25,721 nucleotides of DNA from Promethearchaeia archaeon (lineage in GTDB: Archaea; Asgardarchaeota; Lokiarchaeia; Sigyniarchaeales; SOKP01): positions 1 to 25,721 of the forward strand of contig JAHQWG010000036.1 in assembly GCA_029856045.1 (NCBI GenBank), given 5' to 3'. The notes under the pieces were generated by a model. The model ran no database searches. It worked only from the letters and a program-made list of their open reading frames with translations, and was not told the DNA's origin. Shown piece by piece: positions 10,990 through 14,636 of this stretch. The stretch's first letter is position 1. The number at the start of each line of letters is the position of its first letter. Position numbers and translations under genes: made by a program.

Positions 10990-11730
10990 ATGATTCAAAA
11001 AATTACAAATGAAATTAAATCTAAATTAAAAGAAAATGTTCGAACGCTAACTCAAGATCAAAAAGAGCGAATGTTAAAGATATTTAATTCAAGTAATCCC
11101 AATTTTAATACATATGCTCTTAAAATATCTGAGATTGAAAAGATAGTAAGAGATGTTTTTAAAGAAAACAATGCATCTTTTGATGATTCAATTGAGATTT
11201 TTAAAATTTTATTAAAATCTAATATCAACGATGAAAAATTTGCTGGATTTTTTTTTATTAATAAGTTTAAAAAACATTTTGATGAACAAACTATTAATTT
11301 ATTTCATGATGCCCTTTTCGAATCTTGTGATACCTGGGCTTTATGTGATAGTAGTGTTATTAGAGTAATTGGACCATTTCTCTCAAAGTATGATAAGTTG
11401 ACGAAAAAAACTATCGAAAAGTGGTCTCATTCTGAAAATTTATGGATTCGACGTGCATCTATGGTTAGTTTATTAAAAATTATTTCTTTAAAAAAAGATT
11501 TTGATGAGTCTTATGTATTTAACTTAGTAGAAAAAATGCTTTTGAACAATGAAGATTATATCCAAAAAGGAATAGGATGGTTGCTTAAGACGTGTTCAAA
11601 ATATAAACCTGGTATAATTTTTAATTACTTAGAGGAGAATAAAAAAACACTTCCAAGATTAATTCTTAGGTATGCTAGTGAAAAATTACCAAAAGAGAAA
11701 AGAACACAAATTCTAAAAAATAACCTTTAG
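10990..11730 (+). CDS. DNA alkylation repair protein (AlkD-like HEAT-repeat glycosylase)
   Basis: DTWALCD, WSHSENLWIRRAS, EDYIQKGIGWLLK and LRYASEKL. Confidence 0.88.
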   Translation: MIQKITNEIKSKLKENVRTLTQDQKERMLKIFNSSNPNFNTYALKISEIEKIVRDVFKENNASFDDSIEIFKILLKSNINDEKFAGFFFINKFKKHFDEQTINLFHDALFESCDTWALCDSSVIRVIGPFLSKYDKLTKKTIEKWSHSENLWIRRASMVSLLKIISLKKDFDESYVFNLVEKMLLNNEDYIQKGIGWLLKTCSKYKPGIIFNYLEENKKTLPRLILRYASEKLPKEKRTQILKNNL

Positions 11731-11815
11731 AAATTAAATTAACAATATACATTCTTAAATATGAATTTTTTTTATTCTTATAGATAAAAAATCATAGAAA
11801 TAGGAGAATTTTCTT

Positions 11816-13159
11816 TTGAGTTTTTGTTTAATTCTACTTAATTGGGAAAGAGAAAGGGGTATTAAAATAGATTTCACATATCCTGAGTCAGTAAACCTAA
11901 CAAAAGAAATAATTGATAAAATATACGCGACGCATACTTTTTTACAAGATGAAACAAAAAATGAAGAATTTATTGAGATTGATCATAAAGATCAAATTAT
12001 CATGAGTTATTTTAAGAAATCAATGGATCCAGAAGAAGAACATGAATTATTAATTTTTTTAACTCTTGCAAATGAGAAACCAGAATATTTCAATTTAAAA
12101 TTAAAAGTTATATCTTTTGCTAGAAATGTTTTTAATATTTCTAAAGAGGAACGCAAAGATTATGTTATTAATAATATTGAGGCTAAATTTTCAAAAGAAA
12201 CTCAGAAAAAAAAGATCTTAATATTAGGAAGAGCAAGTACGGGAAAAACAAGTATAAAAAAAGTAATCTTTGAAGGTAAAAACCCTCAAGAATTTTTAGA
12301 GGAATCAATTGAACCAACAAGAGGAGTTTCTCCTTCAATTTACTCTTGGTTTGATTTAACCTTAGGATTTTTTGATACTTCTGGTCAGGAATTGGACGTT
12401 TTATTAAGTGATGATCAAATACTCAGTACAGCATTTGAAAATTCTGATTATATTATATATGTATTTGATTATATTATTTGGAATTCCCAACAGCAAGAAA
12501 TCATTAATGAAATAAATAATATTTTAAGAATAATTAAAACAAAATCATATAATATGAAATTAATTCTTTTTTGTCATAAAATTGATTTGATAAAGAAGCA
12601 AAAATATGGTTCAAAAGCTTCACAGCAAATTATGGATAAATATTTTCAATTGCAAATTTCAGGGATTAGACATAAAATTGAAGAAAACTTTAATCTTCCC
12701 ATATATTTCACAAGTCTTTATCCCAAATTAATTTATAATTTATATACTGCATTTTGTGATATTTTAGGTAAATTATCACGGCAATCATTAAATATAAAAA
12801 GCTTAATTGAGGGAACAATCATAAATTTTTCAAAAACTATGGGTTTTATCACAAATACAAAAAACAATATAGTAGCACAAGTGATTTCCGAAGATTTTAA
12901 TATTGAACTTCTTAATTACGCCCATAATTTAACGGCTCAATTAAACCAAACTTTCTTAGATATGGTTGAGAATGATAATATTAATTATTTTCTATTATCT
13001 AGCTATAAAGGGTTAACTATTATCATGAAACATCTAAATCTTAAAGAGCTCAATATAATGAATTTAATTTGTATTTCAGAAACTTTAACTAATGACGAAA
13101 TAGTTGATTTAGCAATGCAAAGTGGGATTCATATTGAAAATATCTATACATATTATTAA
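11816..13159 (+). CDS. Rag/Gtr-like small GTPase with N-terminal longin/uDENN-like and C-terminal roadblock-like domains
   Basis: G1 GRASTGKTS (aa ~138), G2 EPT, G3 DTSGQ, G4 HKID (His as in Rags), G5 TSL. About 130 aa N-terminal and about 125 aa C-terminal extensions; their folds are assigned by pattern only. Confidence 0.8.
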   Translation: MSFCLILLNWERERGIKIDFTYPESVNLTKEIIDKIYATHTFLQDETKNEEFIEIDHKDQIIMSYFKKSMDPEEEHELLIFLTLANEKPEYFNLKLKVISFARNVFNISKEERKDYVINNIEAKFSKETQKKKILILGRASTGKTSIKKVIFEGKNPQEFLEESIEPTRGVSPSIYSWFDLTLGFFDTSGQELDVLLSDDQILSTAFENSDYIIYVFDYIIWNSQQQEIINEINNILRIIKTKSYNMKLILFCHKIDLIKKQKYGSKASQQIMDKYFQLQISGIRHKIEENFNLPIYFTSLYPKLIYNLYTAFCDILGKLSRQSLNIKSLIEGTIINFSKTMGFITNTKNNIVAQVISEDFNIELLNYAHNLTAQLNQTFLDMVENDNINYFLLSSYKGLTIIMKHLNLKELNIMNLICISETLTNDEIVDLAMQSGIHIENIYTYY

Positions 13160-13188
13160 AACTAAAAAAGTATTGAATATTTTTTCTT

Positions 13189-13944
13189 TTGAATTTAATG
13201 AATATTGATACATACAGGAAAACTCAAAAGTTTTTTTATCACTGCTATTTCAAGATATATCATCGATTGAAAGTTATTGGATTAGAAAATATACCAGATG
13301 GTGCAGCTCTTATTGTAGCACATCATGAAGGTGGTTATGATTTAGATAATCATGCAATAAGTTGTTGTCATCCAACAAGGGATATTCATGTCTTAGATTG
13401 GGATAAATATCATTATATAAATTCAATGTGGGGTAGATATATTTTAGTTGGAGGAATTCCTTTATGGCTACGTGGAGGTATTAGATGGAAATACATAAAT
13501 CCTTATTTACATAAAAAAGGAAGTCAATACCCATCCTTAGTATGTATCTTTCCAGAAGGAAATTCTGGAACTTTCTTAAATCGCCATATTCTTTGGAAGT
13601 TTTTCCCTGGAGTAGTTAGAATTGCCTTGAAATATAAAATCCCAATAGTCCCTACAGCTTTGATTGGATTTCAAAAGGCTAGCCCGATCTTAATTTCAAT
13701 TGAACAAGAACATGGTCCAGCTGATCCAATATATTTTCCATTGATTAATTTACCTTTTAAATTAAAAATTGAATTTGGAACCTCTTTTGAATTAGATAAT
13801 TTTTATGATAAAAAATTGACTAGAGAAGAAGAGTTCTGGATTGCCAATCGTGTAATTCGCCCAAAAATTGCAAAACTTTGTATGAAACATAGAAAAGTTC
13901 AATTACAAAAAGTAGATTTTAAGATGAAAAGACCAGACTTTTAA
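13189..13944 (+). CDS. PlsC/LPLAT-family acyltransferase
   Basis: GLENIPDGAALIVAHHEGGYD (HxxxxD-like), IFPEG, GVVRIALKYKIPIVP and IEFG. Confidence 0.85.
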   Translation: MNLMNIDTYRKTQKFFYHCYFKIYHRLKVIGLENIPDGAALIVAHHEGGYDLDNHAISCCHPTRDIHVLDWDKYHYINSMWGRYILVGGIPLWLRGGIRWKYINPYLHKKGSQYPSLVCIFPEGNSGTFLNRHILWKFFPGVVRIALKYKIPIVPTALIGFQKASPILISIEQEHGPADPIYFPLINLPFKLKIEFGTSFELDNFYDKKLTREEEFWIANRVIRPKIAKLCMKHRKVQLQKVDFKMKRPDF

Positions 13945-13982
13945 ATATCTCATTTTACTTTTATTAAAAATAGGGACTTATC

Positions 13983-14636
13983 ATGAGTTTGAAAATATAC
14001 GGTGAAAATGACTTAGATATTCATGTTGTAGAAAATGGTTGGAAAGGGAATGGTACTAAAGAAAGTCCATTTATTATCGAATCCCGTGCGAATATTGAAG
14101 ATAAAATAAAAATAAAGAATATTACAAGATTTTTACACATAAAAAATTGTGATTTTCACTCAATTTACTTAAGAAATTGTAAAAATATTGCTATAGAAAA
14201 TAATAAAATCCAATATCTCGATTTATTTAATTGTTCTAAAATTATAATTAATAATAATAAGATTTTTTTTATTGAAATACTTCACAGTCCTGAAAACATT
14301 TTTCAAAATAATGATTTAACTGAGTTTGCACTAATTAATTTAGTTAAATTCACTAATACTAAATCTCAATACAATAGTTTTATTAAAAGTATTCTTTTTT
14401 TGATAATTGGATTTAGTGTTACTTCATTAATATTTGGAATACCATTATTTACATTCGAAACAGACCTTATAGCATTTATAGTTCTTTCAGTCATATTTAT
14501 TACTCAATTTTTAGCAGTGATTGCTGGAATATTAAATCTTATAGTTCATACCAATTGGTATAGAAAAGTTAAATTTCTTCCACCTAACAAAATATTAAAT
14601 AATTCAGAACTTCTAGATTTGGAGGATTTTAATTAA
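13983..14636 (+). CDS. Short right-handed beta-helix (NosD-like) protein with two C-terminal TM helices
   Basis: GNGTKESPFII motif, repeats of the I-x-L-x-N-C-x-N-I-x-I-x-N-N type, and two hydrophobic segments at aa ~135-190. Confidence 0.6.
   Translation: MSLKIYGENDLDIHVVENGWKGNGTKESPFIIESRANIEDKIKIKNITRFLHIKNCDFHSIYLRNCKNIAIENNKIQYLDLFNCSKIIINNNKIFFIEILHSPENIFQNNDLTEFALINLVKFTNTKSQYNSFIKSILFLIIGFSVTSLIFGIPLFTFETDLIAFIVLSVIFITQFLAVIAGILNLIVHTNWYRKVKFLPPNKILNNSELLDLEDFN

Follow-up and report, generated by a model that had tools for sequence, protein, structure and literature searches.

Background

The gene at positions 11,816 to 13,159 on the forward strand of contig JAHQWG010000036.1 (assembly GCA_029856045.1, Promethearchaeia archaeon) encodes a Rag-like GTPase preceded by a longin domain and followed by a roadblock domain. 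It raises the question of what a longin domain does when it is covalently joined to a GTPase of this type, and whether this particular copy can still do it. The gene lies in a stretch of 25,721 nucleotides, here called the window, and a sequence-only reading of that stretch had presented its product as a self-contained switch and as a candidate for a novel system. The analysis described here identifies the protein as a further, divergent member of the longin-GTPase-roadblock (LGR) group, an architecture that is already known. It is a Rag/Gtr GTPase of the LGR type, which would combine a nucleotide switch with a roadblock dimer and in which the longin domain probably serves as a non-catalytic module for docking or partner binding.

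The layout itself is not novel, since Tran and colleagues (Commun Biol 7:273, 2024; PMC10933270) ran structure predictions on 74 small GTPases from MK-D1, a Lokiarchaeon in culture, and catalogued Rag-like LGR proteins of this organism, 'Candidatus Prometheoarchaeum syntrophicum'; the claim of a novel system consequently falls. The same authors modelled MK-D1 homodimers with AlphaFold2, obtaining typical roadblock or longin contacts, and took the fusions to indicate functional interactions. In other work, the RagGtr proteins of Asgard archaea have been grouped with the eukaryotic Rags (10.1101/2024.02.28.582541), while archaea are not mentioned in PMC12557722. A GP motif adjoining the arginine finger has been described as specific to longins of the type found in GTPase-activating proteins (GAPs) (PMC12290439), and in C9orf72 the double change W33G/D34K nearly abolishes GAP activity (PMC8213707). 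Which GTPases are served by the GAP-like longins of Asgard archaea was left open by a 2025 survey (PMC12290439). The LGR fusion suggests Rag-like GTPases as their clients.

Gene model and domain architecture

The gene is an uninterrupted frame of 447 codons plus a stop, with a TTG start. This start is taken as correct because more than 100 homologues share the start residue in the alignment and gene calling in close relatives gives an identical length of 447 aa. The opposite strand of 11816-13159 holds no overlapping open reading frame of at least 60 aa. At the sequence level, chance as the source of the gene and its motifs is excluded by the Pfam score given below and by the number and strength of the full-length homologues. 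Profiles, together with the predicted structure, show one chain with three domains, namely a longin domain (aa 1-128), a Rag/Gtr-type G domain (aa 129-320) and a roadblock domain (aa 321-447), in the order by which LGR proteins were defined (PMC10933270). The full-length AlphaFold2 model has a mean predicted local distance difference test (pLDDT) of 82.8 and a predicted template modelling score (pTM) of 0.66.

The G domain is the most readily recognised of the three. All of the motifs from which the sequence-only reading had deduced an intact Rag-type domain are in place (GRASTGKTSIKKVIF, which contains the P-loop G138-T145, DTSGQ, HKID and TSL), as is the switch-I residue T168, giving a complete G1-G5 set with the HKxD form of G4 that marks the Rag/Gtr proteins. 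The Pfam family Gtr1_RagA (PF04670) matches with 71.6 bits (cut-off 22), compared with 27.6 for Arf and 24 for Ras. A profile of 43 family members, run against the sequences of the Protein Data Bank (PDB), recovered RagA, Gtr1, Gtr2 and RagC at 2e-21 to 1e-12, followed by G-alpha at 4e-7. Among Foldseek matches, the first 37 chains were all Rag/Gtr or Lokiarchaeal Rag-like proteins. Structural alignment with VIA-align placed the domain on the G domains of RagD and RagC (Z 19-20, root-mean-square deviation (rmsd) 2.3-2.5), and superposed model residues 130-447 on the whole of Gtr1 (1-301), RagA (4-303) and RagC (61-370), aligning 264-289 residues at Z 20-22. As profile, Foldseek and VIA-align results agree, aa 129-447 can be regarded as a complete Rag-type protein, composed of G domain and roadblock.

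In the predicted structure the roadblock domain directly follows the G domain, as in the Rag/Gtr family, and its secondary structure, together with the superposition just described, bears out the roadblock-like pattern that had been read from the sequence. When two copies were folded together, the homodimer scored 0.52, compared with 0.01 for the best of three controls. A mark of 0.52 was attained by 20/30 proteins solved as same-chain pairs and by 1/23 solved as single chains, counts which are approximate, since a custom alignment was used for the dimer folding. The dimer runs shared at least 93% of their contacts, the pLDDT of the partner was at least 70, and the confident contacts were restricted to aa 365-406. 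A homodimer through the roadblock domain is thus predicted, although the pass may reflect likeness to known structures, since roadblock dimers of Rag/Gtr proteins and of MglB have already been solved.

The N-terminal domain, beginning with LILLNWERERGIKIDFTYP, was assigned through its fold. Folded alone, aa 1-128 reached a pTM of 0.80 with longin topology, and VIA-align against 48,161 PDB representatives ranked the longin of Lst4 first (122 residues aligned, rmsd 3.0), tied with a Lokiarchaeal Roadblock-Longin protein (8yqg) and followed by FNIP2, the SEAC subunit 8adl_S (Z 10.6) and NPRL2 (Z-scores in Table 1), with C9orf72-SMCR8 lower, in the range of Z 8-9.8. Foldseek likewise placed structure chains of GATOR1, FLCN-FNIP2 and Lst4 first (1e-4 to 2e-3). 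In the ESM Atlas, the domain matched eukaryotic NPR2 (TM score 0.72), a Heimdall cluster in which 23% carry Pfam Folliculin, and the DENN-family proteins Avl9 and DENND11. A feature search of the same Atlas gave as best match (0.81) a Promethearchaeota cluster with 19% Pfam NPR2, a value below the tool's separation of signal from chance and useful as a lead only. The proposed longin/uDENN-like fold is therefore upheld by AlphaFold2 topology, Foldseek, VIA-align and the Atlas alike, as a predicted structure, and so is the suggested link to the longins of Rag GAPs (NPRL2/3, FLCN-FNIP), which are its nearest structural neighbours at Z 10.6-11.7. The chain passes from the longin to the G domain with no DENN or C-lobe domain after the longin. 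Pfam has no match for the N-terminal domain, and its profile returned only noise from PDB sequences (E at least 0.4). Against 1.84 billion representative proteins the profile gave 163 matches, with no recognised FLCN, NPRL2 or C9orf72 among those scanned; the long multi-domain proteins scanned among them were archaeal-looking surface, TPR or uncharacterised proteins.

Table 1. Features of the LGR gene and their positions in the window
Feature	Position	Strand	Evidence and remarks
Whole gene	11816..13159	+	447 codons plus stop, TTG start; start residue as in homologues, relatives' gene calls identical
GGAG, possible ribosome-binding site	11803..11806	+	10 nt before the TTG start; read from the sequence, putative function
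Longin domain, aa 1-128 (b-b-a-b-b-b-a-a)	11816..12199	+	AlphaFold2 pLDDT 84.9; Lst4 Z 11.7, 8yqg Z 11.7, FNIP2 Z 11.1, NPRL2 Z 10.6
Beta1-beta2 loop, W10-E-R-E-R-G15-I16	11843..11863	+	family consensus W-D-x-K-x-G-[S/A/P]
Beta4-beta5 loop, aa 67-77, KKSMDPEEEHE	12014..12046	+	family consensus D-K-x-[R/K]-V-x3-G-Y-E; Met70 and Glu75 here
Rag/Gtr-type G domain, aa 129-320	12200..12775	+	Pfam PF04670 8e-20; RagA 2e-21, Gtr1 1e-19; best non-Rag 4e-7
G1 P-loop, G138-R-A-S-T-G-K-T145	12227..12250	+	G138, G143, K144 invariant
G3/switch II, D187-T-S-G-Q191	12374..12388	+	D187, G190, Q191 invariant; catalytic Gln kept
G4, H254-K-I-D257, Rag-type HKxD	12575..12586	+	aligned with HKMD of RagA and Gtr1
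Lineage-specific 11-aa insertion after G4, aa 264-274	12605..12637	+	alignment columns 301-311; pLDDT 55 (block 261-270)
G5, T299-S-L301	12710..12718	+	T299, S300 invariant
C-terminal roadblock domain, aa 321-447 (a-b-b-a-b-b-b-a)	12776..13156	+	AlphaFold2; model 130-447 on full-length Gtr1/RagA/RagC; aligned with Gtr1 as far as aa 409 by phmmer
Predicted homodimer interface, aa 365-406	12908..13033	+	central roadblock helix and next strand; two-copy folding

Distribution of the family

A search of 5.8 billion proteins returned more than 100 relatives that are full-length (430-440 aa), with 32-52% identity and E-values of 1e-60 to 1e-130, named only as proteins of Promethearchaeota or Lokiarchaeota metagenome-assembled genomes; forms of about 310 aa without the longin domain were also found. 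In a survey of 301 genomes of the phylum (E <=1e-20, window protein as query, five candidates scored per genome), matches occurred in 37/68 genomes of the window's own family and in 6/7 of one sister family of the same order, with none in the other 28 families. By sequence similarity, then, no LGR relative turned up outside the window's own order in the genomes surveyed. A complete, single-contig genome of 4.4 Mb from this order has two LGR genes with 29-30% identity to the window protein.

The genome from which the window derives (3.34 Mb, 100% complete) encodes a second LGR protein on contig C36, which is 48% identical, has the loop WDKKMGP and carries K70. The presence of two LGR paralogues per genome was considered as a general rule and discarded, as it was not seen in most of the genomes surveyed at five scored candidates each. 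The same genome also yields about 15 strong Gtr1_RagA matches, in open frames from about 300 to 504 aa, in addition to weaker small-GTPase matches. Rag-like paralogues have expanded greatly in this genome, with added domains of several kinds.

Longin loops of the family and of the window copy

Two loops of the longin domain set the window protein apart from its family, as judged by column counts over 106 full-length sequences. In the beta1-beta2 loop the family strongly conserves W10 (103 sequences), D11 (89), K13 (73), G15 (103) and S, A or P at position 16 (95, made up of 39 S, 32 A and 24 P), and P23 of the following Y22-P23 is present in 106/106. The spacing of this WD-x3-G element equals that of W33-D34...G38-P39 in C9orf72. 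The consensus of the beta4-beta5 loop is C66-D67-K68-x-[R/K]70-V-x3-G75-Y-E77, with G75 in 97/106 and a basic residue at position 70 in 87 (59 R, 28 K). R113 is kept in 98/106.

In the window protein, as in the closely related P0002-P0008 (90-100% identical), these positions read E11, I16, F66, K67, M70, D71, E75 and H76, with Ile70 in P0008. At the end of the beta1-beta2 loop, where GAP-type longins carry the GP motif, the window protein has G15-I16, and the place of the catalytic arginine finger beside the GP loop is taken by Met70, an equivalence obtained by interpolation. With D11, P/S/A16, C66, D67, R/K70 and G75 all replaced, this copy is the family's poorest candidate for the self-contained GAP-GTPase switch.

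The arginines of WERERG, which the sequence-only reading had singled out, were evaluated as a conserved catalytic site and rejected as lineage-private. Position 12 is variable and position 14 hydrophobic across the family, and even the nearest relatives differ from one another at positions 11 and 12 (WKKERG, WKRERG). A relocated finger private to the window lineage may lie at R14.

Divergence, genomic context and selection

In the family tree the window lineage sits within a clade of 27 members on a stem 0.56 substitutions per site long, and the C36 paralogue falls in another clade. Relatives lie in a conserved island made up of genes for a receiver domain and for PAS histidine kinases, the LGR gene itself, a Rag-like gene encoding about 490-560 aa located 10-95 nt downstream, and further Rag-like genes. 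Exactly this setting surrounds the C36 paralogue, whose Rag-like neighbour has 501 aa. Such an arrangement suggests, by analogy, that the LGR family is wired to two-component signalling in a manner reminiscent of MglA/MglB with RomR. The island on contig C36 (311000-330500, L034:1-19501) and the loci L029, L031 and L033 include a stand-alone receiver of about 122 aa, HisKA-receiver hybrids and a PAS histidine kinase.

The neighbours of the window gene are of housekeeping type, namely an HpaB-like protein, a CobW/HypB-type GTPase, a hexapeptide-repeat protein, a GNAT protein, a DNA-alkylation repair protein, an acyltransferase, an NAD kinase and an aminotransferase. Its surroundings contain no two-component genes and no Ragulator, GATOR or TORC1-type genes, and the housekeeping context is kept in P0007 and P0008.

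All 24 family-invariant residues, including every G motif, are retained in the window copy. The ratio of non-synonymous to synonymous substitution rates (dN/dS) is 0.26 overall, with 0.14-0.29 for the longin, 0.18-0.44 for the G domain and 0.25-0.37 for the roadblock, on small substitution counts. These substitution ratios show purifying selection still acting on the gene, and, because the invariant residues are also kept, it is evidently not decaying. Judged from tree and synteny, the window copy is a fast-evolving, divergent duplicate which stands outside the usual two-component/GTPase island.

Comparison with known systems

The LGR proteins of MK-D1 are the closest described counterparts. 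WP_147664208.1 has the same switch signatures as the window's family (GKTSIKK, EPTRG, YSW, DSSGQE, IIYVFD..W), while the window lineage, at 29-30% identity, differs in its changed longin loops, in the 11-aa insertion after G4 and in its genomic context.

With the eukaryotic Rag/Gtr proteins (RagA-D, Gtr1/Gtr2; PF04670) the window protein shares HKxD, TS[IL] and the C-terminal roadblock, the superposition of aa 130-447, and a predicted roadblock-roadblock dimer formed by the central helix and the next strand. It differs in having only 15-19% identity to them, an additional N-terminal longin, and a predicted homodimer instead of an obligate A/C heterodimer. The neighbours of the LGR family are two-component signalling genes, without Ragulator, GATOR or TORC1 context. 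Archaea are not known to have TOR.

The longins of eukaryotic GAPs (FLCN-FNIP/Lst7-Lst4, NPRL2-NPRL3, SMCR8-C9orf72) provide the best structural matches of the N-terminal domain, and the LGR family resembles them in its WD-x3-G[S/A/P] loop, spaced as in C9orf72, and in a basic residue close to where interpolation puts NPRL2 Arg78. Differences are found in the lack of detectable sequence homology, in the missing DENN or C-lobe domain and, for the window protein, in the motif WE..GI and a Met in place of the basic residue.

Among solved Lokiarchaeota structures, LokiRagO (8yl2) and LokiRagM (8zla/9m28) combine a Rag-like G domain with a roadblock, 8yl2 matching model residues 131-444 at Z 19.7, and the longin of 8yqg ties for the best N-domain match, as mentioned above. 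In these proteins, however, the domains are separate or otherwise combined, none of them being longin-G-roadblock, and identity to the window protein is 3-19%. A literature search on the deposited Loki Rag structures found no paper.

In Myxococcus, the MglA/MglB polarity switch (with RomR) is described in PMC9481161 and PMC13408092 as a small Ras-like GTPase under the control of a roadblock dimer and tied to a response regulator. The LGR family resembles this system in that its genes adjoin receiver-domain and histidine-kinase genes; it differs in that the window G domain is of Rag rather than MglA type, that the regulator-type domains are fused, and that the window copy has no two-component neighbours.

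Proposed mechanism and rival explanations

As all nucleotide-binding and catalytic motifs of the G domain are intact, the window protein would be expected to cycle between GTP and GDP, and to dimerise via its roadblock in the fashion of Rag/Gtr heterodimers and MglB. The longin would act as a built-in platform for GTPase docking or regulation. In canonical family members a GAP-like or GTPase-holding role is the likeliest ancestral function, because in eukaryotic longin GAP complexes the WD-x3-G loop forms part of the GTPase-holding pocket and the basic residue maps roughly to the arginine finger of NPRL2. The window copy, for its part, now lies away from the two-component/GTPase island and bears other residues in these loops. 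With those conserved residues gone, its longin probably supplies no catalytic residue and would serve docking or partner binding instead. This is the reading that we consider probable.

Several observations weigh against it. No confident contact of the predicted dimer lies on the longin domain, and the placement of the longin relative to the G domain is uncertain, as the pTM of the full model indicates. The residue corresponding to NPRL2 Arg78 falls near model residue 68, in the beta4-beta5 loop, on interpolation from model 1-128 against chain 6-142, which is not a residue-level equivalence. Position 70, moreover, is Lys in 28/106 sequences and neither Arg nor Lys in 19/106, and a strict arginine finger is disfavoured because Lys is so frequent there. 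Other longins, namely those of Mon1, Sedlin and AP sigma, also match the N-terminal domain, at Z 8-9.8, so that the preference for GAP-type longins is modest (a margin of about 2 Z). The Pfam, PDB and 1.84-billion-protein profile searches found no sequence-level link to the eukaryotic GAP longins, and a literature search found no published biochemistry on any LGR protein.

Some of these points lend themselves to a different view, in which the longin is a GEF-like (guanine nucleotide exchange factor), adaptor or localisation platform for another GTPase, a membrane or a helix, and is not related to GAPs. Most longin and roadblock platforms act in this way (TRAPP, Mon1-Ccz1, DENN, SNARE longins), and the longins of CPLANE and BLOC-3 stand beside those of Mon1, Sedlin and AP sigma in the same range of Z. 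The Atlas matches include the DENN-family proteins Avl9 and DENND11, the GAP-type residues are missing from the window copy, and the strong Rag-like paralogues and weaker small GTPases of the genome represent possible clients. Nevertheless, the best matches and the WD-x3-G loop of the family indicate the GAP-type subgroup, and the covalent fusion makes the protein's own G domain, or that of its dimer mate, the simplest client, which leaves this explanation unlikely.

Slightly less likely still is that the window protein constitutes the 'dead-longin' half of an asymmetric pair, forming a roadblock heterodimer with the C36 paralogue or a different Rag-like paralogue. In eukaryotes, longin GAPs without exception pair a catalytic with a non-catalytic member (PMC8213707; PMC12290439), and such a dimer would echo the split of FNIP, NPRL3 and C9orf72 from FLCN, NPRL2 and SMCR8 as well as the asymmetry of RagA and RagC. 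The genome does hold two LGR paralogues of different clades, loop residues retained by the C36 protein (WDKKMGP; K70) are missing from the window copy, purifying selection persists and, by prediction, the roadblock can form an interface. Most related genomes, on the other hand, have one full-length LGR among the five candidates scored, and one genome of this genus, 100% complete, has a single match at 48%, the level of the C36 paralogue, with none closer to the window copy. A homodimer is already predicted, and the C36 paralogue has Lys rather than Arg at position 70. A broader proposal, which we hold to be a long shot, would make the LGR protein a self-contained unit in which a longin of FLCN/C9orf72 type acts on the Rag-type G domain. 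The fusion would then count as Rosetta-stone evidence that Rag/Gtr GTPases, and not Arf-related ones, were the original clients of the 'GP-motif' longins of Asgard archaea, and the window copy would be a 'finger-less' subunit paired through its roadblock with a canonical paralogue. If this were true, the window copy would prefigure two features of eukaryotes, the pairing of catalytic with non-catalytic longins and the asymmetry between RagA and RagC.

A functionless, decaying duplicate is, of the three rivals, the only one clearly disfavoured, and we regard it as highly improbable. Its long stem branch, the loss of conserved longin residues and the displacement from the ancestral island would fit decay, but the frame is intact, the 24 family-invariant residues are all present, and dN/dS is about 0.26 across all three domains. 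Gene and synteny have also been kept across lineages down to 90% identity, and the DNA recurs in 14 sediment and salt-marsh studies.

The LGR fusions may be taken as circumstantial evidence that Rag-type GTPases were wired to longin regulators and to roadblock platforms before eukaryotes arose. As far as architecture goes, this point is already in print, and within the family the window copy departs furthest from the canonical form. Its value would lie chiefly in biochemical work on the longin domain, where it offers a naturally 'loop-degenerate' counterpart to the canonical LGR paralogue.

Neighbouring genes and further longin proteins

DNA near-identical to window positions 11000-14000 was found in marine-sediment and salt-marsh metagenomes of 14 studies, which indicates that the organism is widespread in such sediments; no RNA dataset was listed with a match to this stretch. 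Downstream of the GTPase gene, by 30 nt, lies a PlsC-type acyltransferase gene (window 13189-13944), followed by a gene for a 217-aa protein without Pfam match (13983-14636). This order is kept on the contig of P0007, while that of P0008 differs after the GTPase gene, for which reason it is doubtful that these genes form an operon with that of the GTPase.

Longin domains of this kind occur elsewhere in the same genome. A 130-aa protein on contig C14 (L004:1474-1866) is a stand-alone homologue of the N-terminal domain (hidden Markov model E 6e-15) with intact WDNEIGP and YPE, that is, a free-standing 'GP-motif' longin. Four more proteins open with the longin signature G..I.KWDE..G....YPE, encoded at L025 and L026 (contig C46, 107685-108800 and 113740-114846), L028 (C36, 56711-57838) and L027 (C20, 7896-8534). 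Two of the four are near-identical proteins of about 370 aa without Pfam match, one has 375 aa, and one, of 212 aa, joins the longin to a winged-helix DNA-binding domain.

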